Assembly: GCA_051294375.1 (NCBI GenBank)
Contig: CM119267.1
Location: forward strand, 13,966,710 to 14,030,709
Direction of reading: 5' to 3'
DNA from: Paraspadella gotoi
Taxonomy: Eukaryota; Animalia; Chaetognatha
Length of the DNA: 64,000 bases
In this document: in pieces, positions 741 to 60,839 of the stretch
Position numbering within the stretch: the stretch's first letter is position 1
How the letters are laid out: each line of letters starts with the position of its first letter
Notes under the pieces: model-generated
Databases searched by the model: none
The model's input: the letters and a program-made list of their open reading frames with translations, nothing else
What the model was told of the DNA's origin: nothing
Program-made: the position numbers and the translations under genes

Positions 741-1352
741 ACTCGTAACGCTCCACACACAAAAAAAATCCACACATAAAAACAAGAAGCGGATCGATAT
801 TCGCCATCTTCTGTCAAATTAAACGGACAACAACGACGAGGACTTTTGAAGTTTTTTTCTCAGAGAAAACGACGAAATATAATGACGAAGGACACACATG
901 GGTAAGTGCCGAAAGGGGGGAATCGGGTAAGGTACGATTTGAATTGAGAAGAGGTTTGCACGAGGGGCCCCGATGGATTGGCCAAGGAATTTAGGGTCAG
1001 GAAAGGTAAATAATTTAAAGAAAAGAAAATTCTTCATCTTACCAAACACTGAAGTGAAAAAGAATGTAAGAACATTTTTATCTTCGGTGTAAATACTTTT
1101 GTTTCGTTGAGTTTGAATATGGTTAAAAATGAGTTTAGTAATTTGAACAATGATACTTAAAACTAAACGATTCTACTAATGCCGTACACGAAACCCAAAA
1201 CTTTACGAAATCTACGTACGGAACAAGGAAAGGTCACCGGAATCCAAGCACTACGAGGTGCGAAAGAAAAAAAACCCCAAAACTCCGCAAAACTCGAGAA
1301 GAAACCTGAGCTGACGTCAACCGAGCGAACGAGGGGGAAAAAAACCCCAGTG

Positions 1353-1426
1353 TCACGTGAAGGACGACGCCGCATCACGTGATCCGCTTCCTCGAATCAC
1401 GTGAGAACCAGAGAACGTTCACGTGA
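1353..1426. promoter_or_regulatory. Cluster of four TCACGTGA (E-box/CLEAR-type) palindromes at exact 22-bp spacing
   Basis: TCACGTGA at 1353, 1375, 1397 and 1419 with three unrelated 14-nt spacers. A CRE palindrome TGACGTCA lies at 1312-1319. Function is inferred only. Confidence 0.5.
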
Positions 1427-2030
1427 TCGCCTCCCGGAACACATGTCTGCTACAAGACGCTGATGATGCAGTGCGTGGGAGGAAAGGAAGAGGAAGAGAA
1501 GTAGGAGGAAGAGGAGGAGGAGGAGGAAAATGAGAAACCGGGAGAGGGAGGAGGAGGAGGAGGAGGAGATAGAAAATAAGAGAAGGATCATATGAGAACG
1601 AGTGAGAGAAAGAGAGAGAGAGAGAGAGGGGAAATGAGAGAGAGGGAGAGTGTGAAGGGGGATAGAGAGAGAAAGAAGACTACGGGAAAAAAAGCTGAAT
1701 ACGAGCTGGCGTGCGAGAAGAGGGAATGTGCGAAGAAAAATGACAAAAAATGAAAAAGTTGAGAAGGGGAAAAAATTAAATTAAAACAAAAAAAAGAAGT
1801 CTAAAGAAAGAGAAAGGAAAATGGGAAAAACTAATAAAAAAAAATTCTGAAGATATACATAAATAACGAGGGAAACAAAAAGATAAAAGAATAAATATTA
1901 AAATAATAATAAATAATAATAAAAGAATAAAAATAGAAAATAAAGAAATTGAAAATGAAAATAACGGATGTTCTGTTAGGAATTAGATTGGGCGATAGAA
2001 ACTACGGTCTTTTTCTGAAAGACGAGAAGT

Positions 2031-2070
<40 letters not shown>

Positions 2071-2347
2071 AGAGATTCAGGATGCTGATCGCGTTGAAGG
2101 CAAAACGCGAGAGGGCGACAGGCGAGCAATCAGAGAATTTTTAGTCACGAGTCAAGGAAAGAAATTTCGGGTTCACTCGGTTTTTTTTTTATTAACTTTT
2201 TCTTATTTTTGGAGGAAAAATTTCTTTTTTTCATTTTCTTGGGAAAATATATAATTTTAAGTGAAGAATAAAAAAAACACGAGGAAAACGAGAAAATTTG
2301 TTGAGAAAAATGAATCGACGACTGAAAATAACAAAATGACGAAATGA

Positions 2348-2381
<34 letters not shown>

Positions 2382-2553
2382 TTTGACTTTCGACAGTCGC
2401 TGAAAATTTTTTTTTCATTGAGTCGATTGTGACCGTAAAATGATGGCGAGAGGGAAAGAGAAAGAAAAGAAAAAAAAGAAAGAAAAAAAAAGAAAGAAAA
2501 AAAAAGAAAAAAAAAAAGAAGAAAAAAAAGAAAGAAAGAAAGAGAGAGAGGGG

Positions 2554-2625
<72 letters not shown>

Positions 2626-3645
2626 GAGAGAGAGAGGAAAGGCACATTGAACAACGCCGATATTACGATCGCTAAAAACAAAGGATAATACTTTTAAAAA
2701 AAGAAATGAGACTCCGACAATAACTCGTAACAAAACGATCACAATATATACACTCCAGTAACGTTACAAATAAAGCCAAAAAGTTTTCTGTGTCAAGTAA
2801 AGATTGCGCCATGAAAAGACAAATGTGGTGCCCATAATAAGAATGATATCATTTACTCATGTGCAATTTAAAGGCTATGCTTTTTAAAATTTAAGTATAT
2901 AAGGTGATTTTTAAAGTCTGATATAAAGTGGCGCGTTTTTTTTTAGACATGACTGTACAAGAGCGCGGCTTCCTCGTTTGCTTCCCTCCTCCTCCCCCTC
3001 GCGGGAGGTTTTAAATTTTTAGTATAATTCACCCGGAGGATTTCTTCGCCGGGACAGCAACGAGGCCGAGGACGACGACAACAGCGTCAGGAGCGGGATC
3101 GGCGCAGCGGCGCGCGGCTGCCGACCTCCTTATCTCTTTATCGCCAACTGCAACTTCGGCAAGGACGAAGACGACGATGACAACGACGAAGGACGAAGAC
3201 GTCGACCCCGAGTCCGACCTTCGTCGACCGAGCGCCTGCGTCTTCTTGACCCCCACGACTTCCGGTTCCGGTGGCTTCTTCCGCGTTTCCGTTTCGACTC
3301 CTTCGGTTCTTCGAGATCTTCCCTCTCCACCGCTCATCCCTTTCCCCCAATTTCGATAACTCCGTTTTTTTTTTTCTGCTCCTTTTCTTCGAATTCATTC
3401 TTCTGCTTCTCAACTGTTTCTTGTTTTACTTTTGATAAGCATTACCCTAAATTGGTCCTGCTTGCTTAATTCATTCAGTTCGTACTTGTTATCCTAGTTC
3501 TTCCGTTCTGCCAAGATTTTCTCGCAACCTCCAATACAGTTTCTTACTTACCTCTTTCATTATCTAAATATTTCTTCAAAGAGCTACATCCCTCTTTGTC
3601 TAATAGATGTGCGTACTTTATTCTTTGGTCCTTCGTCTTTCATAC

Positions 3646-3720
3646 TACAGGGGTGGGACACTATATCGGGACAAAATTGATAAAAATCATTACTTTAAAG
3701 CTCTTAATAATTTTTAAAAT
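3646..3720 (+). mobile_element. Possible single terminus of a Tc1/mariner-type MITE
   Basis: TA|CAGGGGTGGGACA opens an AT-rich block. No matching inverted end was found in the window. Confidence 0.25.
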
Positions 3721-5763
3721 CTGAATAAATATTCGCTTTTAGATGATGTATTAATTTTTTTGAAATTCTTCGATATTATGCTTTTTTTGATGCATCAAAG
3801 GCAACTGCTCGGTTTTTTCCGCGCGGTTTGGAAAAAATGTTTGAATACTTATTGTTAAATCTCATTCTAATATATAAAAGTGAAAAATATTCTTGGAAGT
3901 ACTTATTTGTAGTATAATAATGCTCCTGGCAAGGTGTACATGGTATTTTGGTTAAAAAATTTTAAAGTAAGCAGGTAAGATTTGGGTAATTTTTTAATGG
4001 TTTAATTTTTATTAAAACTTACTTTTATCAAAAAATTTATTAACGATATTGACAGATAATTGTAAGATTTAAGATTGTAAGATTGTAAGATTGTAAGATT
4101 TAAGATGTAAGATTTCTGAATGCATAATAAAAGCGTCAAAAAGGTAAGAAATACATAAAGTATTTGACAATTGAATATATTCGTTATAATCCTCCTATAA
4201 TTTTGTTTTACTGACCTGAAAAAAAATTAAATAGGTTTAATTTGGATAGTGATGAAAAGCTTAAAATCAGGTGTATTGAAGATAAGACATAACACTGTCA
4301 TGTTTAGAGACGACCACTGAAAGATATTAACAAATATGGCTTTTATCTTATACAATACAATACGCGCGCATAAAAACGACTAAATGTTTTGAAAACATCC
4401 ACGACGCATTGCAGTTGCTTAAATATTTATTTTTTTTAATTGCATATAAAAATTGTGTATCAAATCGTTCAGATAGGGCAGGATGTTAAGTTTTGTCTCG
4501 ATATAGGGTATGTCTTTCATCGTTTTCATCAATACCCACTTTCTCTTTTTGTCCCCGCTTTCCTCGCTAAGTCATTTCTTGGCGCTTGCAACACCTCTTC
4601 TGGACTTTCCCACCTCTACTCGCTTCTTCTCCCCTTACCGCTTCCAAATGTTCCACCCGCCGACGGCCATTTTCTCGGCTTCCGCCGCCGACGCCGATCA
4701 GCCGCGTCTGCGCCGTTTCCACTCCGTCAGCCACTCTACATCCAACTCCCATTTTCATACCCATCCACCGGCGCCACCCTCGCGAGCAAGGCCGCCCGGA
4801 AGTTGGCGTGGGCGTGACCGGAAGCGACGTGGGCGTGTTTGAGCAAGACGTCTCTAACGCCTCCGAACGTCGAAACGAAAATCCCGTAAAAATGATGGAA
4901 TATTGTCGCCAAGGACGAAAATCGTCTACGACTACGACGACGACGATGACGACGACGACGATGACTGCTTCCAATGGTTGAACGCCAGAAGGACGACGAC
5001 GAAATGATGCAATCGCATATTGCGTTAACGACGACGATAACTACGACGACGACGACGTCGACGTTTAATAGGGTGAAGACGGGGGAGGCAGTTATTTCTT
5101 CCAAACGACGAAAAGGATTAGGAAGCAAACAAAGTCGCGAATAGTATGACAGAATATATTGAGTCGCTCGGAGCAGGATTGGAGGAAAAAGGAAAAGAAA
5201 AGAATGTGGAAAGGATTTAAACGGAAAAAAGGAGGAAAAGAAAAAAAAAAGGGATTAGAAAAACGATTTGAGGAGAACGGGGGAAAAAGGAAAAAAAAAA
5301 GAAGAAAAATAAAGGAAGAAGATAAGTAAGGAAAGTGATAGAAAGAATGGATTTGGAGTAAAACCAGAAAAGAAGGAAAAAGGTAGTACTAGCGGGGAAA
5401 AAAAGAGAGAGAGAGACAGAGAGAGAGAGAAAGAGAGTAAAAATAAAAATAAGACAATAAAAGGTAAAGAAAGGCAGGAAAATGGCGGAGCAATTTCACC
5501 GTCGCGTTGGTAAGAACAACAAGACCAACGCGACGAAAAAAGAATTGGATGGAAATAAAAACGAAGCGAAAAGAAAAGAAATTGTTCTCGTTTTTGTCGG
5601 TTGTTTTTTTTTTGTTTTTTGTTTCAGCGACGCGATGCGTGAAAGGTCAAAACTCCGAATGTTCATTTGATGATTCTCTGGAAGGAAGGAAGGGGAGCGA
5701 CGAAAGCGAATCACGCTAGAGGGCAGAATAATTTAGAGATAGATTGAGTGGGTCCATTTGTTG

Positions 5764-6007
5764 TTTTTAGTCGGATCCCGACTCTATTATCCACTTTGAC
5801 TTTGTCGGTCCACTTTGACTTCTTCGGTCCGTCGGTCCCACCACAAAATCTTGTCGGTCATTCAATTAAATCATGTCAGAACATCAAATTATGATAAAAT
5901 ATGCAAAAAAATGATGTCCGTCCGCCCGTCCGTAATTCATCATCGGATTAGCTTATTACCACTTAATTATCGTAGACATATCCGACGTTGTTTGCTCAAA
6001 CTTGTTT
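5764..6007 (+). mobile_element. HINE/DINE-1-like element, family B, short copy
   Basis: 5' TTTTTAGTCGGATCCCGACT, GTCC microsatellite, 3' ATCCGAC (inverted subTIR), hairpin GTTTGCTCAAAC and TTGTTT. Both ends are homologous to the reverse complement of 54036-54620. Confidence 0.65.
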
Positions 6008-6992
6008 TTTTTTTTTTTTCAACTTTCGAACATCGGTGGAGCCACTGCAAAGTCTCGCGCGATTAAATGGCCGAATTGGACCCATAAGCGTCGCGCTTTG
6101 TCACATGACGGAACCTCGTCAAAGGTCAAGCACCCTCTCGCGCATGGTCATTGATCGATCACGGACCGGGTCACGCGTGAACGTCGACGCCGTTCTCGTA
6201 TATACGCGCCGATCGACGCCGGTTTTTATGCCGGAAACCGGGTGACAAGTCAATCGTCGATCGGTTGAGTCGAAAGAATCGAGGAAGAATCAGGTGGAGC
6301 TAAGTGGTGAGGTGGAAAGATGGTGGGTTGGTGAGGTGGTTAGGGAGTTGGATAGGATTGGATGCTACTCTTCCGAATTGTGAATATAAATATAATGTAA
6401 AAAAAAAAGAGACTAAACCGTAAAGTTAGACGATTTAGAGATATACTTTAAGAATAAAGCAAACTGGCCATACGGTTTTAGGAGTTCGGGGCCTCAGGCG
6501 TTCCTGATCGTATGTGGAAAGTCTGAAATATTATCGAATCGTCCTTTCCAAGATCTCATGACGAGAGTGTCCCAATCATGGATTCCCATTGAGAGAGGAC
6601 TTCTATTAAAGAAGGCAACGGGGCTCCAGGTGCGGGCCGAATTATATGTCCTCCTTTCTTTCCTCTCTCTCACTCTCTCACTCTCGCTCCAACCCTTCTT
6701 CCCCCTTATACGGCCCCGTCCGCGCATGGGGGAAATCGACGTCGGTCCTCCTTACGAAAAATCCAATTCCCAACCAAATTGCGGAGCTGCCTCATCCTCG
6801 TTTTTGAATCTCTCTCTCTCTCTCTCTCTCTTTCTCTCGTTCTCTCTCTTTCTCTCTCTGTTACTCTCTCTATCACTCTCTCACACACACACATCCCTTG
6901 CGCGCACACACAAACACAAAGCTCGCGTTTTCAGGTAGATGTGACTCAAAGCGAGAGGGAGGGAGAGAGAGGGAGAGGGAAAGGGATGGAGA

Positions 6993-18084: not shown

Positions 18085-18310
18085 AGCCGGGTTGCCTGTG
18101 ATGCCCATTGGGATGGGACATCTCACTGTTGGCTTTAGGGGCTTCCGACCCTCAGTGGCGCCACCTTAGGACGGTCTCGCTTTGCCAACGCAGAGGGAAG
18201 TCGTTAGGACGATGGAACGCAGCGCCTGGGATGGTGCGTCCCCCCTCTGAGCCAATGGGATTTGCTGAACCATGGAGTATGTAAGGCGGTGTGATTATAC
18301 CGCCAAAATT
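18085..18310 (+). ncRNA. Candidate structured RNA or structured repeat, unassigned (strand tentative)
   Basis: GC-rich island with nested complementary segments: CCCATTGG 18104-18111/CCAATGGG 18252-18259, GTTGGC 18128-18133/GCCAAC 18184-18189, CAGAGGG 18191-18197/CCCTCTG 18243-18249, and a terminal hairpin GGCGGTGT-GATT-ATACCGCC 18285-18304 followed by AAAATTTTT. Confidence 0.3.
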
Positions 18311-19235: not shown

Positions 19236-19965
19236 CGGCCGCTGCGACCGATGCAGCCGACGCTGCCGTCTCCGATTGATAGCCATTTCGCGCCAAATTC
19301 ATTCGTATGAGGAAGAAAGGTCGAAAAACATAAATTTCGACGACCTCACGATGGCCGAGGTAGAGTGAGGCGGAGGGTGGGGCGGAACAGGCGTGGCCCT
19401 TTTTTATTAATATCGTTTATTTCTAATAACGCGGCAAAAAAAAAAAGCGCATCGGCGACGCCCATCGTAATTAGTTAAGAAGAAAAAAATATATATTGAG
19501 AAATATATTAAAACTTTGGAGAAGATCGTGAATGAGAGGGAATCGAATAAAATGCGATATGGGGGAGAATCGAACCGTGTACAAAGAGAAAGAGAGAGAG
19601 AGAATTTTTCCGGCCGCTGCGACCGATGCAGCCGACGCTGCCGTCTCGCATTGATAGCCATTTCGCGCCAAATTCATTCGTATGAGGAAGAAAGGTCGAA
19701 AAACATAAATTTCGAACGACCTCACGATGCGCGAGTGTAGAGTGAGGCGGAGGGTGGGGCGGAACAGGCGTGGCCCTTTTATTTAATATCGTTATTTTCT
19801 AAACAGCGGCAAAAAAAAAAAAGCGCATCGGCGACGCCCATCGTAATTAGTTAAGAAGAAAAAATATATATTGAGAAATATATTAAAACTTTGGAGAAGA
19901 TCGTGAATGAGAGGGAATCGAATAAAATGCGATATGGGGAGGAATCGAACCGTGTTACAAGAGAA

Positions 19966-19975
<10 letters not shown>
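19236..19975 (+). repeat. Tandem duplication, period about 375 bp
   Basis: CGGCCGCTGCGACCGATGCAGCC starts at 19236 and 19611. The copies differ by scattered indels and both end in (GA)n. Confidence 0.9.
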
Positions 19976-20013
<38 letters not shown>

Positions 20014-20034
20014 AGAGAGAGGAGAGAGAGAGAG

Positions 20035-20225
20035 AGAGACTATCTCTATGAAGGAGTCATATACTCAGCTCTCCCGAACGCAGCCGTAGACCGGAGCGGC
20101 GGCGCGCGGCTGCCGATCGACTCACCTTCTCCTTCCGGGCTTTCTTCCGCTCGGATCGGGGAGATTTTCTCTTCTCTCCGGGCTTCTTCCGGTCGAAGTC
20201 CGAGCGGATCGGGCCGGATATCTCT

Positions 20226-20263
<38 letters not shown>

Positions 20264-21606
20264 GACAGTGCTAAGCTGTATAAACTGGACCCCATCGAAG
20301 TTAAACAAACTCCATACAGGAGCCTGTCTCTTCAATGCCAATATCGATATCCGGCACCATCGACACGCAGTCTAAAATCATCTAAAAAGACTGGCGGCCA
20401 ACATCATCTCCAATTCCTTGGGAGGCAAAAACTCGTTCTTGTAACTAATAAATTAAAATTGATCGACAGTTATATCTCGTATATTCTTCTCCTTAGAATA
20501 ATATTCTTGTTTCGTGTCCCAGGAACCTTTTGATAAAGTTATTGACCGTGGTTGCGAGTTCATAAAACCTATATTTTAACCAATATGGTTAAATAATTTT
20601 ATATCTTTAGCTTCTGTTATTTAAATTTCGTTTTAAAACTGAATAACACTTTCTATCCATTGTTTCGTCGATTTCAATAAACGTTGCTCATTGGTAGATG
20701 TAGTAAAACTAAAAGAGTAGAAAAGGCAAGAAATTATGGACAAATACTCTGAATAGAAATAGTGATAGTATTTGGCGGGTAAGACCCCGCCGGGGCTCGC
20801 TTTTTTTTAATGTATTAGTTGCAAGTTAGGATACCCTAGTAATTTTTCAAATACCCTAGTATTTTTTTAAAATTACTTTGATACTTTTACAAATCGATAG
20901 ATTTTAAGTATAAAAGTTAAGCGCGTAAGACCTCGCGGGGCGCGCACAAAGTATTTATTTGGCGATAAGACCCCTAGGAGGGCCCGCAAAATAGGATCGC
21001 CCTAAGGCTGTTTTTCTCCTCATCCGCGGGCGTTTTTAGTAATATCTTATCATCATCATCATCATCTCTCTCTCTCTTCTTACTCTCTCTTGCTCTTGCC
21101 GTCTCGCTCTCTTTCTATCTTTTTTTTCGAAGGTTTCATGTTGTTTCGAGGCTTCTGAGTATAAGCCATGCTATGAAGAATGAATGATTCTCAGCTCCTC
21201 AGATCCAATCATTACGGCCCTCTGAATCTTTGGGGGCTCCGCGTCCCGATTTAAATTCCTCCCTCTTCTCCCAGCCTCGCTTCGCCATTGGTCGAGGATG
21301 CAAAATGAGGGAACGACTGATTGGTCGGTGCCCGACTCCTCCTCGATTCTCATTTGCCAATTTTTAGATCTAGTCTCGAGTCATGAATCAAGCGCCATTT
21401 TTGGATGAGGAGAAAAAAGGGAGGGAGAATGGAGAAAAGAGATAAAAAAAAAATGGCGAGAGTAGAGAAGAGAGAGAGAGAGGCAGAGAGAGAGAGGAGA
21501 GAGAGGAGAGAGAGAGTGAGTGAGTGAATGAGTGAGAGACGAGAGGAGACTCGTAAAAAGAGTCCCGAGAAGGATCTTCATNNNNNNNNNNNNNNNNNNN
21601 NNNNNN

Positions 21607-21697
<91 letters not shown>

Positions 21698-21880
21698 CTA
21701 TCTCTATGAAAGGAGTCATATACTCAGCTCTCCCGAACGCAGCCGTAGACCGGAGCGGCGGCGCGCGGCTGCCGATCGACTCACTTCTCCTTCCGGGCTT
21801 TCTCTCCGCTCGGATCGGGGAGATTTTCTCTCTCTCCGGGCTTCTTCCGGTCGAAGTCCGAGCGGATCGGGCCGCCGGCA

Positions 21881-21919
<39 letters not shown>

Positions 21920-22345
21920 GACAGTGCTAAGCTGTATAAACTGGATCCCCATCGAAGTTAAACCAAACTCCATACAGGAGCCTGTTCTCTTCAATGCCAA
22001 TATCGATATCCGGCACCATCGACACGCCGTCTAAAGATCATCTAAAAAGACTGGCGGCCAACATCATCTCCAATTCTTGGGGAGCAAAAACTCGTTCTTG
22101 TAACTAATAAATTAAAATTGATCGACAGTTATATCTCTATATTCTTCTCCTTAGAATAATATTCTTGTTTCGTGTCCCAAGGAACCTTTTGATAAAGTTA
22201 TTGACCGTGGTTGCGAGTTCATAAAACCTATATTTAACCAATATGGTTAAATAATTTAATATCTTTAGCTTCTGTTATTTAAATTTCGTTTTAAACTGAA
22301 TAACACTTTCTATCCATGTTTTCGTACGATAATTCAATAACGTTG
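20035..22345 (+). repeat. Direct repeat of about 650 bp (20035-20686 and 21693-22345) on either side of a 25-N gap
   Basis: GACTATCTCTATGAA...CAATAA(A)CGTTG is present twice, with indel-type differences. Confidence 0.9.
20770..21040 (+). repeat. Element with three copies of a GCG..TAAGACCCC..GGGGC.CGC hairpin motif; possible non-autonomous Helitron-like remnant
   Basis: TAAGACC at 20780, 20926 and 20966; ATACCCTAGTA at 20831 and 20851; ends in GC-rich CCGCGGGCG..TTAGT. The repeat is seen directly; the class assignment is weak. Confidence 0.45.
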
Positions 22346-33091: not shown

Positions 33092-36000
33092 GGGCGGCGG
33101 CCCGTCAGCGGGCGTGAAACGAAACCGACGACGGACGAAGTTTCGGCTTTCGTCATCCGAGGATCCACCCGACGCGCGTGGAGCAGCTCGAGGTCGACGC
33201 GCTGCCGTACGCGCCGGTCTCGCCGTCGCGACGCCATCTTGAAAATCAACGGGGAAATGACGTGGAAGGCGTCGCACACGCACGTCGGTCAAGCTGCTGC
33301 AGGGTTCGGGATCGTTCGCCGACGCTGCTGGTGTCGCTTGGGGAGGCGGAGGAGGAAGCGGGAGATGGTTTTGGGGGAGATTTGTTCGATTCCTCCTTTG
33401 GGGTTGCCGAGCGGAGGGCGCGCTTTTCTCGCGAAAAGGAGTGGCGAAAATCTTACGGGATATTTGGAAGAAGAGGTGTGTTTGTTGGTTGGAATGAGGG
33501 AAACGAGGTCAAATTTGACAAATGTATTAATTCTTAAAATGAGCTCTGTAATAATGGGAAGCCAAGCCAAGCCAAGTTTTTGTTGTTGTCGTTGGTTTTT
33601 TGTTTGAATTGATTTTGTCAGCCGACTCCATTTCACTTCCAATCCCCATTCAGGTCGTAAAAATCTAGCGATCTCGCTTATCTCATCAGACCCCCTCAGG
33701 GAAGATGGATCCAAATCAGAAGCTGAGCTTTCGAAGAATTCAGCCTTGGACCGCCTTCAACCGGGGAGGCATCTTATCTTGGCAATGCGGACTTTCAAAG
33801 AGAAAGATCGGAGTATCACTTGACCAAAATAGCAGCAAATCAAACTGCGCAAGATCCTCGAAGATTTACTTCGACGATCGAGACGTCGCCGCCTTCGCGG
33901 ACCGGCAGTTCGACGACCTGCTGGACAACGACGCCAAGCGCGACCCCTCTGGCCAGGATCCTTCAGTTATTGCTTATTCGCACCAAGAGTTTATTAAGAA
34001 CGGGAGAAGGAAAAGAAGGAAATCTTCTGAGGTCGTTGGGTTCGCAGCGGATCGAAGAGTTGGAAAAGATCGAAGGCAACGGACGGATCGAGTTCGGGGA
34101 GATCCACCGATTCAAAAGTCACGAGTCGAAAAAACAAAGAGAAAATATTAGAGACATCGAAGAGTTAAAAAAGGCCCTCCTTGACCAAAGACGGACGACG
34201 ACGACCCCATCGACCTCGAAACGGAAAACTCCATCGCCTCAGGCTCAACCCAGTTTATCGACTCATCCGCCAAATGGAGCGAGAACGCCTGAACAAGGCA
34301 CGCCGAAATCCTGGGAGAGCATCCAGCACCGATCCGACGGCCGATTGAAGACGGCGTTGAGGCGACAAAGCTTCGACACGTTGCAGACGTTCGAGTGGAG
34401 GAAGTGACGGCGAACCTCGTTTGAACGAGGACAGTTGAGAGCGCAGAGGCGGATCGCCGTTTGAGCATCGGAAGATGCGGATGGAACGGAGGCCGTCCTC
34501 ACCGGCTCGTCGATGTGGACGCCCGGCTCTAAAGAGTAAAGGGGCGGTATGAGAGGCCGGCGACTCGCGCGGACGATGCGCTGGGAAAATCTCGTCGTCG
34601 AAATCCGTGGAGACTCCCAGGACGAAATGGTGAAGATGAGGAGGAGGCAGGAAGAGTGGGATGTTCACGTGACTTAATTTCGATATTTTCTCTTCGACAG
34701 TGAGGATTTGATGAAGAGTGAGGTCTTGGAAGAGGAGATAGAGCGTCAGAGTGGTCAGAGTCATCCCTGATCCATCTGCTACAGTGACGACAACGAGACA
34801 ACGGACACGCCCTTAACGACGACGAAATCGCCTCCTTCGAGAATTTCTCGTTGCCTGACCCTTTCGAGCGAGAAACAGACTCAAGAAGGGGAAGGGATCC
34901 CAGTAAGTCGACGCGGGAAAGAAACTCACCCATGGACCGGAGGAAAAAACTTCGTGCAGCAGGCCAATTCGAAATCTCCGCAGCACAGGACTAAATCCGC
35001 CGAATCAACTCCGACGAACGGAGACCAAACGACGACAATGTTCGCAAGCAACAATAACAGGCAGAAATTCCAGAATAGGCCAGCAACATCGCGTTTGTGC
35101 TTCCGGTCCGTCACAACGCCATGGAACTCCCAAGCGACGAATTACGCGAGGTCCGTCAACCGGGAGGAGTTGCCTCCGGACCCCACCTCCTCCTCCTCCA
35201 CCACCGCCCCCTCCTCCTCCGCCACCACCGCCACCTACAAAATCAGCCGAAGAAGAAACATCCTCCTTCCGTCGCGACCCGATCGCCCTCGACCGTCGCA
35301 AAGCCCCCTTGACAGTTCTGATGGCGGAGCTGCAGGCGCCGCGTCAACTCTTCCTGCTGCGTCCGGAGGACAATTCGACGACGATTGGGGACGGTCGATT
35401 GCGAGGGACCGTCTTAGGAAACATCGTCTGAGGCGCGAAAACTTCGAGATGGCCGTCAAAGACTATGGACGCTCCACGCTGACTCCGGATGTCGCCGAGG
35501 ACGTGGAAAGGGCGTTTGCCCGGAAGAGCGGAGACGGTTTGGGGGAGGAGGAGGGGATTCGGGTAAAGGACGTTGCGGTCATGAACAGACTCGAGAAGGT
35601 TTGATGTCGTGGAGAGGTTATATAGAATTGGATTGATGGATTCATTGAAATAATTGTTGATTTGAATTTAATTTACCGATCAAATGCGTATGAATTGAAT
35701 GATTGGTTTTGAATGTATTCCTTGACTGATTGATTTGATCGGGTTTTGATTCAAGATACGATTCCATTTTTCAGATTCCGTTTCTCAACTTCGCGTTCGC
35801 GATTTGATGTTTAAAACGCAATTTTGCAAAAAAGCAGAAAGAACCGAGCAAAGTTTTTTCGCTCATTTCCCTGCCGCCGAGGAAATCGTCATGAGCGAGA
35901 TGCTCGGCGCATTTTCGCAGGTCATTCAAATCATGCACGCTGAGCCGAGACCAAGGTTCGTTTGGTTTTTTTTTTATTTTAATGAAAATAAGCTAAAATA

Positions 36001-39981: not shown

Positions 39982-40489
39982 CGAGAGGGAGAGAGAGAGA
40001 GAGAGAGAAGCAGAGAGAGGCCTAATNNNNNNNNNNNNNNNNNNNNNNNNNATTTAAAATTATAATTTCTAAGGGGAAAAAAGCCTCCGTGGGGAATTTT
40101 GTCTACGATACAGCGGAAGAATCTTTGGAAGATGCTGTAGCCGAAGACGATGCCGAAGACGATGCCGAAGACGATGCCGAAGACGACTAGAGAATCAAAA
40201 GACTCGACCGAGAAAGATTTTTTTAAGACGACGCGATATTCGATGCAGCTGTGACGAAGAGCGAAGGAAAAGCTCCAAGGAAAAAAAAAGGAGAAAAAAA
40301 AAATAAAGGAAAAATTTAAAGATCCAGCGAAAAAAAAAACTGAGTCGAGTTTTCTTTAAAAAAAAAAGCACAACCTTTTTTTTGGCATCTTTTTTTTTTC
40401 CTCTGCGTCTGAACAAATACGAATATAAACCCTCGACCTCCGTAAACAAAATCAGTTGGGAAATAAAAAAGACACGGAAAGTAGAAAGT

Positions 40490-49268: not shown

Positions 49269-52200
49269 CGTGCAAGGTAGCGCTTGTCACGATTTTTCCT
49301 CGCGACGTTAGAAACTCGAGCGTGAGGAATTCCAAAACGTCGAGCATTTTTCTTTTTTCTTTCTTTTTTTCCCTTTTTTTTTTCGAGCATAAAACTCCAT
49401 CTATTCTCGTCGACGTGACAACAAAAACAAAATACAAACCAAAACAGTAACAACGACAACAACACCTTGAATAATTGCGACTTGGTGCCGAAAACCATTT
49501 TCGCTTTTTTTTTTCGGGAAATTTTTCTTAAGTAGTGAAGGGTCGTTTTGAAAAAGGAAACTCCTAGTATGGAAGTGTGGAAGTGATGGAAAGCGGTTAC
49601 GTTTGTAGGAAATTCGGAAAACAAGAAAGAAAGTTCCCGAATTCGTAAGAAGCAATCTTCACTGCATCAGTGCAACACACTCAAATATGGAAAAAGGCAA
49701 CAATAAAAAAGCCATCAACAGTCAACACGACGCCATAACTTTGTCGACCTTAGTCGCTTCCTCTCCTGACTTACCTCGTATATTGAAATAAAAATAAGAA
49801 AAAAAAAAACTAAACAAAAACAAACAAAAAGAGAAGAGTTTTGACCCTCTGCAAATTTAGTAGTAGGTATGTAGTAGGGTAGTAGAATAGGTAATACTAT
49901 TAAATTTGTATGAGAACTTAAAATTTTAAATTAAAAGTAAATTTGAACACATAGAATGAGATGTGAGATATTAGGAAGTTTAGACATGAAGGATGAAGAA
50001 ATGGAACGTTTCCCGATCCATCGAAATGTCTCGAAGCTAAAACAGTCTTGATTGGCTCGTTTCGCCCTTCAACTAGTTCGTCCTGTTCTAAGTCGCCATG
50101 CAACAGCGGGTAATCTCCCACCCTCCCTTACTGGCAAGGTTGCCACCACTCACTACCACCACTCTCCAGTCTCCACCAATCCCCGTTTCGAGGATTAACC
50201 CGCGGAACAGAGATGGCGATTTGTGCGAAGATGAAATTCCTTCGGACTGAAACGAGGAGAAAGCGTAGGAGAGGGAAGTTCCGCGGAGTGAGATCGAATT
50301 GAAGGGTGGAAATAAGGAAGTGGAATAAGGAATAAGTGAAATAAGGAAGTGGAATCCACCGAAGCGGGAGTGAAAAGGTTAAAGGTTAAATAGTGGCGGG
50401 CATGACTTTGGGTTCGGGTTCGAGTTAAGGCGGAACAGGTTGAAAACTAGATGTTCTATATGTATATATAATACATATATATATTTTTATATATATGTAT
50501 GATAAGTAGATTTTCTATATGTATATATAATACATATATATGCTTGGAGCGCAAAATTTTGAAATTTCTTAAAATCCGTCAGGTGGGCAATAAAGCAATT
50601 ATTCCTCCGGCATCTGTTCCTAGCGAATATAAAGAAAATTTTAGCCATATTCGAAGAGTTATGAGAGCCCTGAACTTCTGGACTAGAGAAAAGTTTACTG
50701 TATGTATTAAAGCGTAGCCAGCAATATTTAATATCAGTAAAATCACGAAACAGGCTGTAAAACATTTTTAAATCTAAAAATATTTTTTTAATTTTCACAT
50801 TAGGCCCTAGTACCTTCGCCTAGACAATGTTCAAAGTTTTAAATGTTTTTTTCTTATTTTTAAAAGTCTATAGTTATCAGAGATTCGAATTCATTTATAT
50901 AAAAGTGAAAATAACACATTTTTCGAAAATTTTCATTGAGTCAAAATCCTAAAAAAACTATTATAAATCAACCTAATAATTAAATTTTTAGTTGTAAAAA
51001 AAAGTTTTTGCAAACTTAATATGAAAAGAATTTTGAATAAAACTTATATTTTCTGTTACATCAACTTCTATGAGGAATGTCGTGTAGATAGACCAATGCT
51101 GCTTACCTCTCTTACCTAAAATCTGCTTTCCAAAAATAAAAAAAATTTTAAATTTGAACATTCTGTTGGTAGTTTAGTATAAGTTAGCTATAATGTTTTA
51201 TGTATAATATGCGGCTTAATGCAAATTGAGAAATTTTTTTAAAAAAATTTAATATAAATTTTCTTTAGTCTTTAGTTACTTTAGTTCTTTAGTTCATGAT
51301 CAACGTATGTATCGAATTATGATCTGCAAACTTTCACTACGCCTTAATATATATATATTGTTAAATAAAATTAAATGAAACAGTTTTCAGGATTTAACTT
51401 TAGTAAATGTATCTTATAGCTTAAGGCAAGCAAGTTTTTTTAAATCAACCAAGTTTTATATAAAATTACAATTTTATATAACTGTCAAACTTACAGAATA
51501 ATGATTATAATTTGTGAAAATAAAAAAAAATCAAAATTACCATTATTTCACTTTTTTATCTCTATCAGAATCCGGTTTTTCAAAATCAATAATTTATAAA
51601 TTATATTTAAATAAATAACAAATTATATCATAATTTGTTAATTTATTTATACCGATATTAAAAAAAAATAAATTATGCATTACAGTGTCAGGTACAAATG
51701 AATTGCTTAAAAATGTAAAATTATAAATCAATTTAGTATCAAATAACAAATAGTTTAATTAGAATAATTTTTTTATTGTAAAAAAAAAAACTCTTTCCTA
51801 ACAGAGCGAAGAGTTGACTAGTGTGAGATGAGTGAACAGGGTAAAATTAATTGGTGCCGTTTCTTCGTCGTTCGGGTCAAGTTGGATAAAAAGTCTAGAA
51901 ATCTCTGCGTGTGAAGCATCAACTTCCAAGCGAAAGGGAGTGATTTGAGGCAAATATAATTAAAAATATCAGTTGGAAGCTGAGTTGTTCTAAGGGTCTT
52001 TGAATTTCATGTATATGAATGACATTCGCGAAAGTCCTTATATTGCCCGTTATTTAAGCGTTTTTTTGTCCTTTTTGGTCCCGTACCTTTTTGTCACCGC
52101 GTGCGACGGCAGATTTTACGCTCGCTCGATAAATTTTACACTTCAAACGTAATAAAACCAAGTGAAAAACTGGCGAGCTATATGAATCACGTGATATTTT

Positions 52201-56586: not shown

Positions 56587-57794
56587 CCTAACATCTTTCC
56601 GAATTTTACAACGACGACATATATATATTCCGTCGTAATGTGACTCTATCACGTCTTCATCTGACCTTGTACCGTAATCTCTTTTTCTTTTGTAATAGAT
56701 ATATAATAAAGTTAACAAAGACTCTTATTTTTTTCCGAGTTTGAGAAATTTCTTTGATTTTGGTTTTGAGCTTTGGGTTTATGATCACTTTTTGTTACTA
56801 ATGAGGTGTAATAATTACAAACAAATATATATACATTGTAATACTAGCGCGTAGCACGTTACAAGTAGAAGTAGTAGTATTAAGTCGTAACTAGTTAAAA
56901 GTTATTAACTAAGTTATTAGTTTAAAAATGTACATCCTGGATTTTTTTTGTTGATTTCCGCGGATTCCATATCTCACACCGCCATCGATCGTCGTCGACG
57001 TCGTCGTCGTTTTCATCGCGACCGTCGCTTTGTTCGGTCGTCATCCTCGTCCGGGCGCGTCCGTTTTGAGTTTTGTAAGCATTCGACTTTGAAGCATCTG
57101 GAAAGGTTTAACCTTGGGCCCTGGCGACGACGGACGACGACGCTGAATGCGACGATGAGAGACAGCCCCATGACGACGACGATATGCGAAGACGGCGACG
57201 ACGGCGATAACGACGACCGAAATGAAGATGAAAACTCGCGAGACCAGAGTCTTGAGAGTATGGAGAACAGAGAGCCGCGAAGGGAAGTGGGGGGTTGGTG
57301 AGGGAAGAGAGGGGGGGGAAGAGACGAGGGGGGAGGAGGGAATGAGAAGATTAAAGAAGAGAGTAGGAGAGGTGGAGGTGAGGAAAATAGGAAAATGGTG
57401 TTAAAGATGGGGGCAGAAGGGGTGGAGAGGAATAGAACGTGGGTAGGGAGGAAGGGAGTGTGAGAGTGTGGAGTGTGGAGTCCACAGTGTGGAGTGTGGA
57501 TGTGGAGTCCACAGTGTGGAGTGTGAGGGTAAAAGGAATAAGGGGGAAAGAGGATAAGGAGCTGGNNNNNNNNNNNNNNNNNNNNNNNNNATTTCGAAAT
57601 CTGTTTCAACTTAAAAAAAAATTTTAATTTGGACATTTTATGGTGAGTTTTGTTAATTATGGGATATGCAAATGAGAAAACAAGAAATTTTTTTAAAAAA
57701 TTTAATAATTAAATTTTCTTGCTTCTATTCTTTACGTTTTTAGGTTCATGATATCAACTATATTGAATTATTGATCTGCAACTTTCACTACTGC

Positions 57795-58542
57795 TGAGAG
57801 GCTGTTTTATACAGGGCGCCACACGCAGCGGAGTCACCCTCGTGGCGACGCGAGACAGCATGATTCAATGTAGTCCAGGAGCTTTGGATCTGGAAGTAGC
57901 CCATGCGCCTACAGGCGGTTACCCCTGTCAATCCACTTATCTACACATTGACTACTCAGGGCTCGACCAGGGCACTGCACATGGTGATGATGCCATTAGT
58001 CCACTGAAGCACTGAGGCGCTACGAAAAGAAACAGCTTTATATCCCATCTGTGGATGATAGTACCACCAGCAGCCGCCACCAGGACTCTCGCATTTATGA
58101 GAGTACGAAAGCAGGGATGAAAGGATGATCTCTTCTGGCTGATACCTTTCTTTCCATTCTGGTGGCCTTGCTATTGGTGGCAGCTGTGCTAGCTCAAAAC
58201 ACACACTCAAGGGCAGTGGGATATATCATGCCGGGTTGCGTGTTACGGGTATCACGTCGGGTTCACATTTGAAGAGCTGGAATTTACAGGGCGACCACAC
58301 CGCGCGGAAGTCACCTCGTAGGCGACAGCGAGACAGCTACTGTCATGTAAGATCCAGAGCTTATGGCATCCTGGCATTTAGGCCTGCCTACGGCGGGTTA
58401 CCCGGATCCATCCCACTTTTCTACATGACAACTCAAGGGTCGAACAGGAGCACATTGGGATGAGTGCACTTAAGGCACTGAGTCACTGGAGCGCTGCGAA
58501 AGAAACCAGCTTTATCCACTCTGTTGGTGATAGCCACCAAGA
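57795..58542 (-). mobile_element. Miniature non-autonomous LTR retrotransposon (TRIM-like), tRNA-Trp primed
   Basis: Direct repeats at 57795-58072 and 58270-58542 (about 275 bp; start TGA(A)GAG, end CACCAGCA/CACCAAGA) flank a 197-bp internal region. The minus strand reads TGTGAACCCGACGTGAT (58267-58251) 2 nt after the LTR, versus the canonical Trp PBS TGGTGACCCCGACGTGAT. A G-rich GGTGGCGGC precedes the other LTR. Flanks are AC(t)GC and ACGC, and the empty site at 51339-51342 in the sister copy has a single ACGC. Confidence 0.85.
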
Positions 58543-60839
58543 ACGCCTTAATATATATGATATGTTAAATAAAATTAAATGAAACAGTTTTCAGGATTTA
58601 ACTTTAGTAGATGTATCTTATAGCTTAAGGCAAGCGAGTTTTTTTAAATCAACCAAGTTTTATATAAAATTACAATTTATATATAACTGTCAAACTTACA
58701 GAATAATGATTATAATTTGTGAAAATAAAAAAAAATCAAAATTACCATTATTTCACTTTTTTATCCTATCAGAATCCGGTTTTTCAAAATCAATAATTTA
58801 TAAATTATATTTAAATAAATAACAAATTATATCATAATTATGTTAATTTATTATATACCTATTAAAAAAAAATAAATTATGCTAATTAACCGTGAGTACA
58901 AATGAATTGCTTAAAAATGTAAAATTATAAATCAATTTAGTATCAAATAACAAAATAGTTTAATTAGATAATTTTTTTATTGTAAAAAAAAAAACTCTTT
59001 CCTAACAGAGGAAGAGTGACAGTGAGAGAGTTGAACCAGGGTAAAATAATTTGGTGGCGTTTCGTCGTTGGGCTCAAGTGATAAAAATCTAGAAATCTCT
59101 GCGTGTGAAGGCATCACTTCCAAGCGGAAGGCGAGTGATTGGAGCAATATATTAAAATATCGAGTTGGAAGGCTGAGTTGTTCTAAGGGTTTTGAATTTC
59201 ATGATATTGAATGACATTTCCGAAAGTCCTTATATTGCCGTATTTAAGCGTTTTTTGTCCCTTTTGGTCCCCGTACCTTTTTGTCACCGCGTGCGACGGC
59301 AGATTTTACGCTCGCTCGATAAAATTTTACTTCAAACGTAATAAAACCAAGTGAAAACTGCGAGTAATAATCACGTGGATATTTTGAAAGACAGCAGGTG
59401 TAAAAAAAAGGTCGGATAAATTGCTGTGAAACGACTGAACGTCTGAAATCTTCAGAAATGCGAAGAGAGAAAATCGTGATACCGAGTTACGCTGGCGTAG
59501 ACTGAGATGATTACGTAGCGTGACGTATCGTGACGCAGCGACTCGGGACGATTTCCCCCAATTTTTTTTTATCTTTCGTTTAGAGAAAAAAAAAACAAAA
59601 CAAAAAACAAAAACCGAAAATTGGAAAAAAAAATTCTTTTTTTCCCTTCGTTTTTGCGACGATATTGAAAACAAACATTGAAAACAAACATCCAAATTTT
59701 ACGACGTCGTCTTTTTTCAAAATAAAAATAAAACGAGACGAAAGAAAATAAAAAAGAAAAAATATTCCTTTTGTTTTCTTTTATATTTTTTTCTCTTTCT
59801 TTCTCGGGTTTATTTCTCCGTCGTGAAAAGAGAAAAATTTCCGTATAAAGAAAATAAAAGTCGAAGAGGACGACGACGACGACGACGACGACGACAACGA
59901 CGTTTGATAACGAAGACGACCGGCCTGAAGGAGAAATAGAGGAACAAGTGAAAAGACCGACACTAGAGCGAGAGGAGGAGGAGGAGGAGGAGGAGGATAA
60001 GAAAAAAGCGAAAGAGGTTAGCCTAAGAAAAAAAAAAAAGTGAGAATTCAGGATCAAAAGAACTTTTTGAAAGCGAGAGACGAGACAGAAGGAGCACGAG
60101 AGAGGAGCAGAAAGAGAGAAGAGGGAGAAGGACGAGAGAGAGAGAGAGAGAGAGACCTAACGTAGAAAGACAGTGATAGAATCTAGAGACAATGAGAGAA
60201 ATGCAAAGGAGAGGTAAAAGGGAAAGAGATGGAGAGAAGAGAGAGAAAGATGAGAGATGACACGAAGAGAAGAGAGGAGAGGAGAGGATGTAGAGAAGAG
60301 ACTAAAGATAAGAAGGATAATTTAGGGCAAGAGAGAAATGACAAAGGAGCAGTAAAAGGTGGAGAAGAGAGATCAGAGAATGAGAAGAGAGGAGAGAGAG
60401 AGAGGACTAAAGAAAAAGATAGAAATTTTAAGGCAAATGATCTCTCTCTNNNNNNNNNNNNNNNNNNNNNNNNNNNNNNNNNNNNNNNNNNNNNNNNNNN
60501 NNNNNNNNNNNNNNNNNNNNNNNNNNNNNNNNNNNNNNNNNNNNNNNNNNNNNNNNNNNNNNNNNNNNNNNNNNNNNNNNNNNNNNNNNNNNNNNNNNNN
60601 NNNNNNNNNNNNNNNNNNNNGAGAGAGAGAGAGAGAGAGAGAGAAGAAACTAAAGCAAGGAGGAAATTTAGGCAATGAGACAGCGAGACAGAGAGAGAGA
60701 AAACACTCAAAATGGAAGAAATCTGGGAAGTAACGAACCGCGAGAGATAAACAAGAAACTCAAACGAGGGTTTTCATTCGCGCCTCGCGACCGAGGCGGA
60801 AATCTTCTTGCAACATGGAGGAGATGGAATGGGGAGGGG

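Follow-up and report, generated by a model that had tools for sequence, protein, structure and literature searches.

Two groups of LTR elements are among the closest described systems for the locus considered here. LTR retrozymes are mainly plant elements and mainly hammerhead-based, according to the available part of a 2026 preprint (10.64898/2026.07.22.740005), and the LTR retrozyme cycle has been demonstrated so far only for plant hammerhead elements. As described in the accessible sections of the report on plant LTR retrozymes (Cervera, Urbina and de la Pena 2016, PMC4918200), these are non-coding elements with one type III hammerhead per LTR, a primer site for tRNA-Met, a Gypsy helper and a 4-bp target duplication; the units between the two cuts measure ~600-1000 nt, and both cleavage and circles have been shown. 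The second group, Helenus/TRIMp3 (Kojima 2024, PMC10886601, consulted in its accessible portions), comprises elements of less than 1 kb with two LTRs and with A and B boxes in the LTR. In those portions of its main text, twister is unmentioned and ribozymes occur only in the title of a reference.

In a window from Paraspadella gotoi (the window being the entire stretch of 64,000 nucleotides that was analysed), copy 2 of a duplicated segment carries a 748-base insert at 57795-58542. The insert is an LTR element without coding capacity, and it lies on the minus strand. A sequence-only reading of the same DNA had described an ordinary element of the TRIM type, and it overlooked two features of the LTRs, namely A and B boxes and a fold resembling a twister; together these shift the likely mechanism from that of an ordinary TRIM to that of a Helenus-type element that is a candidate LTR retrozyme. 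We consider it somewhat probable that the insert belongs to an abundant family of non-coding LTR elements that is transcribed by Pol III, cut by a predicted twister and copied by a Trp-primed Gypsy helper, and that the copy described here was recently inserted.

Layout, ends and target site of the insert

The direct repeats of ~275 bp reported previously are evident, with a local alignment score of 202.5 against 29 for the best of 500 shuffles. On the minus strand, the 5' LTR occupies 58270-58542 (its last base may be 58543) and the 3' LTR occupies 57795-58072, whereas the 197 bp between them (58073-58269) form a non-coding internal region. The longest stop-to-stop frame within the insert is 106 aa, in agreement with the earlier statement that a long ORF is lacking, and a Pfam search with three insert frames gave no match. 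Thus, the size and coding features of a TRIM (less than 1 kb, two LTRs, no coding capacity) are all present. The GC content of the insert is 51-53%, against 21-23% for its flanks, and no second copy of it occurs elsewhere in the 64-kb window. Pfam searches with 27 and 105 frames of the window yielded nothing above the curated cut-offs. GC-rich open frames of 160-277 aa at 33669-35604 look like a frameshifted coding region, although no Pfam family scored above cut-off there.

TG or CA is visible in the window at three of the four LTR ends. The right repeat opens with TG at 58270, not 58268, and this plus-strand TG corresponds to the minus-strand CA end of the 5' LTR. The inner repeat end at 58071-58072 is CA, and the loose ends of short-read contigs from runs X2, X5 and X6 place the LTR boundary at the same two letters. 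The TG..CA ends claimed by the sequence-only reading therefore stand at three LTR ends but not at the outer right end, 58541-58542, which reads GA in the window and for which we infer CA from short-read loose ends. The two copies of the target site read ACTGC on the left (57790-57794, plus strand), which is one letter too many, and ACGC on the right (58543-58546, plus strand). A 4-bp target duplication remains likely, as had been proposed from these flanks, but its exact letters are unsettled (ACGC or, one base along, CGCC), and the flanks may alternatively be read as a 3-bp duplication.

Short-read support and abundance

Nine public runs were listed, of which eight held part of the window. 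Four of them, representing three samples from two studies, were compared as assembled contigs over 57725-58635; after record filtering, this cover excludes 58190-58375 in every run compared and the flanks in X5 and X6. Pieces of the insert lie on contigs with depths in the thousands in all four runs, and over 58071-58109 of the internal region the contig depth is 959-6409. X2 is the only run with a flank contig. In that run the unique right flank has a depth of 12.9, and parts of the insert reach 183-342 times the flank depth (about 180-340). Contig depth is only a rough guide to copy number, and on this basis the family may be put, roughly, in the hundreds of copies. The multi-copy character of a TRIM is thus seen through depth alone, from deep contigs in 4/4 runs, while insertion sites elsewhere are not directly visible.

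Both junctions of the filled allele are represented. Record 1 of X1 (98 bp, depth 43.9) aligns to 57769-57824 and extends by 34 loose letters that match the left flank, and it therefore spans the left junction. Record 16 of X2 agrees with 58540-58634 at every position; the empty copy can be aligned with it only from 58543 onwards and has a mismatch at 58610, so the simplest reading is that this record represents the filled allele and crosses the right junction into the LTR. The earlier claim of a real, multi-copy element thus gains support, directly at the left junction and by inference at the right one. These two contigs also contradict a concern raised with that claim, namely that a single chimeric read might be the sole support. 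The window copy is noisy and adjoins an assembly gap, as might be expected of a chimeric-read artefact, but with the left junction crossed and the right junction supported in separate runs, we regard such an artefact as extremely improbable.

The noise itself is readily observed. Short-read contigs differ from the insert in the window at 10/88 and 17/99 places, mostly by gaps, and the alignment of the two LTRs is likewise dominated by gaps (231/308 columns identical, 12 mismatches and 65 gap columns or, with a different scoring, 30 mismatches and 47 gaps). This supports read error as the main source of the LTR-LTR differences, as the sequence-only reading had suspected, although family variation may add to them. 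Because noise dominates in this copy, divergence between the LTRs cannot date the insert, and an age estimate on that basis was rejected. Contigs of 777-831 bp and depth 20-99 (records 8, 14, 22 and 29) share 58392-58432 with the insert and then diverge; they probably come from a related subfamily that is less common and has a longer unit.

Filled and empty copies of the insertion site

The two near-identical segments extend over ~51.1-57.2 kb (copy 1) and ~57.6-64.0 kb (copy 2). As had been reported, copy 1 reads through 51331-51348 without the insert, and the empty target site lies at 51339-51342 (plus strand). The right flanks of the filled and empty sites show six differences in ~257 bp (98% match), two of which are A/G transitions (51406/58610 and 51432/58636), both less than 100 bp from the insertion site.

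We judge that the segment duplication looks like an assembly overlap, because a 25-N gap (57566-57590) separates the copies, because the same pattern recurs at the 25-N gap at 21582, because the differences between the copies are mostly gaps, extra bases being up to ~three times more numerous in copy 1, and because copy 2 has N gaps at places that are filled in copy 1. Duplicate copies that are separated by Ns and differ mainly by gaps are what we take gap-filling overlaps to look like in such assemblies. The gap at 21582 is flanked by a 730-bp duplication (19960-20686 / 21614-22345; 95%, mostly gaps) that is likely of the same kind, and no duplication was found around the 25-N gaps at 40027 and 46801. 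Given that exact loss of the element together with one duplication would be hard to produce by error, the empty site is best attributed to a second haplotype. We therefore hold with good confidence that a second haplotype is present and that the insertion is recent and polymorphic.

The sequence-only reading had gone further and proposed a heterozygous insertion. Its inference of a second haplotype is retained, but heterozygosity finds no such backing in the short reads. No contig that skips the insert was found among the four runs, which is a weak test because the flanks are bare in X5 and X6 and the stretch compared takes in only ~70 bp of the left flank, itself a repeat. On the unique right flank a single contig was found, from X2; it runs unbroken into the LTR and leans slightly against heterozygosity in that sample. 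The empty allele is known from the noisy assembly copy 1 alone. The lack of an empty allele among the short-read contigs and the unbroken X2 contig would also fit a true tandem duplication of ~7 kb, with the element in one paralogue and no polymorphism between animals. That arrangement is improbable, however, in view of the 25-N gap with its counterpart beside another duplication, the gap-dominated and lopsided differences, and the N gaps in copy 2 at places that copy 1 fills.

The neighbourhood of the insertion site has a feature of its own. In copy 1, 50425-51347 is a ~915-bp stretch that runs from TTAA-GGCG to CGCC-TTAA, and TTAA with an RR..YY pattern is given for Kolobok DNA transposons in the accessible part of PMC9587614. 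The right end of this stretch lies on contigs with a depth of ~1400-2000 in X1 and X2. The insert landed in its last few bases, so that the copy 2 counterpart of this stretch borders the insert on the left as far as 57794.

A putative two-part tRNA-Trp primer site

A putative primer-binding site for the 3' end of tRNA-Trp is located at 58251-58267 on the minus strand, 2 nt from the 5' LTR. Reference sequences were obtained by a pattern scan of metagenomes that gave at least 130 loci, with 134 tRNA-Trp genes among the 176 tRNAs listed. Positions 58252-58265 correspond exactly to the last 14 nt of the commonest tRNA-Trp gene listed (14/14 nt, against 13/14 for the next), followed by CA and then by the 2 nt that lead to the LTR. 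The Trp assignment made earlier is thus supported, and a tRNA-Trp site adjoining the 5' LTR is the arrangement expected of a TRIM. It also falls in the primer class of Gypsy-32_NVi and Helenus-2_SyJa, as far as the available text of PMC10886601 covers them, which supports the earlier proposal of a TRIM layout with Gypsy-type integration.

The complementarity does not end at this site. After an 18-nt primer site and a 6-nt break at the T loop, an 11-nt block at 58234-58244 (minus strand) is complementary in 11/11 nt to the variable loop and the 5' strand of the T-stem (tRNA positions ~45-55), which would give a two-part site of 29 nt. With the block included, the predicted primer duplex changes from -26.2 to -46.3 and from -23.2 to -40.1 kcal/mol. 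The block, which lies outside the short-read cover, may have been selected as a second site, or it may be left over from copying that ran beyond the end of the primer. In viral contigs, the split pattern with a spacer of 5-12 nt gave 0 matches, and in metagenomes all of the at least 143 matches listed had the 4-nt spacer of tRNA genes. Four of those listed (L043, L058, L065 and L095) are tRNA-Trp 3' halves with an encoded CCA, two of them without the anticodon arm, and are likely retroposed tRNA-Trp fragments. The available Helenus supplement (PMC10886601) contains 0 matches to the 11-nt block, although line breaks in that text can hide a match.

At the other end of the internal region, a polypurine candidate at ~58073-58084 is G-rich but interrupted by pyrimidines, and the sole minus-strand run of at least nine purines sits mid-way through the region. 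Inverted repeats (58071-58082/58175-58186 and 58076-58083/58159-58166) and a small hairpin near 58086-58104 were also observed.

Pol III promoter-like motifs in the LTRs

Each LTR contains A-box-like and B-box-like motifs on the minus strand, at 58475-58485 and 58436-58446 in the 5' LTR and at 58001-58011 and 57959-57969 in the 3' LTR. When A+B pairs were scored with matrices built from tool-found tRNAs, the score of the pair was reached by 0/300 shuffles for the 5' LTR and by 9/300 for the 3' LTR, whereas in the control regions (the plus strands and the internal region) 95-119 of 300 shuffles reached the score. The distance from A box to B box is 39-42 nt, and a loose end of an X2 contig at the matching place in the 3' LTR is a perfect GGTTCGAG box. 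Thus the boxes are present in both LTRs and on the sense strand only, which is a Helenus feature, and transcription by Pol III is predicted from them. Whole tRNAs are a different matter: ARAGORN found 0 tRNAs in the entire window, alignment of whole tRNAs to the LTRs did not exceed shuffles, and a search of the insert against Rfam with E values up to 10 gave no tRNA.

Neither LTR has a run of four Ts (T4) after its B box, and for this reason a ribozyme could supply the 3' end of the transcript. A T4 at 58028 is T3 in the other LTR and in the short reads. Another T4, at 58199 inside the internal region, could stop Pol III there.

A twister-like fold behind the boxes

Downstream of the boxes, both LTRs can be arranged as a type-P5 twister-like fold on the minus strand, at 58341-58430 in the 5' LTR (predicted cut 58400/58399) and at 57865-57951 in the 3' LTR (predicted cut 57921/57920). 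The order of elements is an enclosing helix, GA with the T1 strand, a 6-nt linker, UAA, a short P2 strand, GC, the P3 hairpin, P4 and an 8-nt L4. This order agrees with the Rfam P5 consensus (RF02684) and with the published twister parse, as given in the accessible part of PMC8501958. The enclosing helix has 9 bp in the 5' LTR (58430/58341; 7/200 shuffles) and 7 bp in the 3' LTR (75/200 shuffles). The L4 half of the 5' LTR is garbled, whereas L4 of the 3' LTR is found at 57881-57888 and can form 3/3 pairs with the T1' strand of the 5' LTR, by eye, the letters of both strands differing from the customary CCC/GGG. The core, with its order of elements, the T1 and T2 pseudoknots, the UAA site and the conserved G and A, is complete when both noisy LTRs and the short-read pieces are combined. 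The 5' half of the fold, 58392-58432, is covered by short-read contigs in 4/4 runs.

Some characteristics of the fold imperfectly match the canonical architecture. There is no intramolecular P1 stem, its place being taken by the 6-nt linker, which was also seen in 1/59 phage P5 candidates (L249). The P2 5' strand has 3 nt, including in the deepest short-read contig (X5 record 23), and the pair that closes L4 is A-U. For these three reasons we file the fold as twister-like and not as a canonical type-P5 twister. According to the available text of PMC5408937, P1 is dispensable in vitro, whereas 4 nt is the rule for P2, changes of which may disrupt the site, and the L4-closing pair is a near-invariant G-C.

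Searches with a pattern descriptor were informative for one of the two LTRs. The descriptor was tuned three times, after the sequence was known: version 1 missed both controls, and a version that requires two P2 pairs misses both LTRs. The loose version, which requires at most one P2 pair, accepts both Rfam-confirmed controls and the 3' LTR, which 5-7 of 3000 shuffles equal, and it finds 1-2 sites in the whole 64 kb; the 5' LTR passes no version. Rfam searches of the insert and three sub-regions with E values up to 10 returned no twister and nothing relevant, a result whose power is lowered by the noisy sequence. A custom P5 model was built from 45/59 descriptor-picked phage sequences (overlapping and some other sequences were dropped, and the seeds share a fixed P2). 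It gave on the insert only a 0.8-bit local match on L4 (E 1.3), and nothing within the insert in a whole-window search. Folding energies of minus-strand LTR pieces are unexceptional (z -1.4 to +0.75). For one LTR piece the plus strand reached z -3.7, which we attribute to the same long helix seen from the opposite strand. A hammerhead was considered and rejected, because neither LTR has a CUGANGA core or an Rfam match, and neither therefore carries the ribozyme of the plant retrozymes.

Another P5-type twister-like motif was noted on the minus strand at ~18125-18200. It has a 6-bp enclosing helix by eye, a 4-bp P4, T1 at 3/3 pairs, a 3-nt linker for P1 and an unpaired P2, with A- and B-box-like motifs ~150-190 nt upstream (by eye). 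It has no Rfam match, and its similarity to the LTRs of the insert is not above shuffles.

Could the boxes and the fold be chance look-alikes in noisy sequence, within an ordinary Pol II TRIM? The failure of whole tRNAs to exceed shuffles, the lack of an Rfam match and the late tuning of the descriptor are all compatible with this view. Given the shuffle results for the A+B pairs and the descriptor, the restriction of the boxes to the sense strand, and the position of both motifs on the primer-site strand, with the tRNA-type motif ahead of the ribozyme, we regard coincidence as quite improbable. Descent of the fold from a twister is very probable in our judgement.

Whether the fold still cuts is less certain. 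The element might be a Helenus-type TRIM that moves by the ordinary LTR route and retains a decayed or inactive relic of a ribozyme. The stunted P1, the 3-nt P2, the A-U closing pair and the negative results with Rfam and the custom model are consistent with such decay, and Helenus elements are assumed to move without ribozymes (PMC10886601, in the portions available). Yet a family of high copy number has retained the P5 helix, T1 and T2 as well as the catalytic G and A, and the relic would leave an uncut transcript with no Pol III terminator behind the boxes. We thus consider the relic unlikely, if a serious competitor, and we predict, with a fair measure of confidence, that the twister fold is active in the family of the insert.

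Proposed mechanism

Under the model that we favour, Pol III transcription would start just upstream of the A box of the 5' LTR. The transcript would then cleave itself at U^A once per repeat, at 58400/58399 and 57921/57920, which are 479 nt apart in this noisy copy. Probably, the two ribozymes complete their missing P1 stems on each other via the self-complementary 6-nt linker. The freed unit of ~480 nt, without a terminal repeat, could close into a circle. It is predicted to fold no better than shuffles (z -1.0). A tRNA-Trp would prime on the 18-nt site, with the 11-nt second site holding the freed T-stem strand, and a candidate helper of the Trp-primed Gypsy kind (CsRn1-like) would provide reverse transcription and integration, including the 4-bp duplication. 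The second haplotype would be the source of the empty site. Two points, namely the T4 at 58199 and the poor polypurine tract, fit this mechanism poorly.

The most specific form of the model is an animal LTR retrozyme that combines a tRNA-derived Pol III promoter, a twister that functions only when the two LTRs act as a dimer, a two-part 29-nt Trp site and a ~480-nt circle, that is still jumping, and whose locus is polymorphic between chromosomes. We advance this full combination tentatively, as a possibility that falls somewhat short of an even chance. If the fold cuts, an animal would possess the retrozyme life cycle, based on a Pol III promoter and a ribozyme of a different class, and LTR retrotransposition would become a process in which twister takes part. 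With one site available in both its occupied and its empty state, recent movement and target duplication can be tested directly, and through the two-part primer site the engagement of the primer can be tested in an element of very small size.

Comparison with known systems

In literature screened by title and the start of the abstract, with few subscription papers covered, no entry described an LTR element that carries a twister. The twisters of the Schistosoma element Perere-3 (S. mansoni; PMC8501958, accessible part) begin P3 with the same CUGUAG as the insert, but these motifs are P1-type and sit at the 5' end of a non-LTR element. With the type-P5 twister consensus (RF02684), the LTRs of the insert share the motif order, the 8-nt L4, the possible pseudoknots and the UAA site, and they differ in having no intramolecular P1, a 3-nt P2 strand, an A-U closing pair and a sub-reporting Rfam score.

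With regard to priming, the CsRn1 clade of Ty3/Gypsy, as described in the available part of PMC2582038, has a tRNA-Trp site that varies at the same seventh position and makes 4-bp duplications, as is likely for the insert; unlike the insert, it encodes Gag and Pol. Trp priming is not unique to this clade, and the clade is therefore named only as a candidate helper. Extra T-arm pairing outside the primer site is known from boxes 0 and 1 of Ty1 (PMC3592414) and from the retroviral primer activation signal (PMC11181671), according to the parts of these papers available, and the 11-nt block resembles it. The insert differs from both in that a full 18-nt site and, 6 nt further on, the 11-nt block are separated at the T loop. 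The biv-TRIM (PMC6934838) is an animal TRIM, as is the insert, but is described in the accessible text as being without a canonical primer site. It was rejected as a relative: both repeats begin, on the plus strand, with sequence similar to one of its printed primers (4 and 8 of 1000 shuffles), but the other primer fails to match (p ~0.5-0.8).

Among the Helenus elements, Helenus-2_SyJa and Helenus-2_SyUm are closest. Beyond its size, its two LTRs and its boxes, the insert shares with the accessible descriptions of the group (PMC10886601) a primer site, the Gypsy-type Trp primer class and, likely, the 4-bp duplication, and it departs from them in its twister-like fold in place of a hammerhead and in its poor polypurine tract. 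In the available supplement of that paper, the LTRs of the two wasp elements (Helenus-2_SyJa-LTR and Helenus-2_SyUm-LTR) show, by eye, a hammerhead core whose loops are complementary and which follows the tRNA-like part. What the present locus adds for elements of this type is the empty site together with the longer primer site.

In its presumed way of working the insert comes closest to an LTR retrozyme. It is like the plant LTR retrozymes in being non-coding and in its primer site, its ribozyme-like fold in each LTR, its likely 4-bp duplication and its presumed Gypsy helper, and, by prediction, in the unit between two cuts. It contrasts with them as an animal element, known from sequence alone, with a twister-like fold, a tRNA-Trp primer site, Pol III boxes and a predicted unit of ~480 nt.
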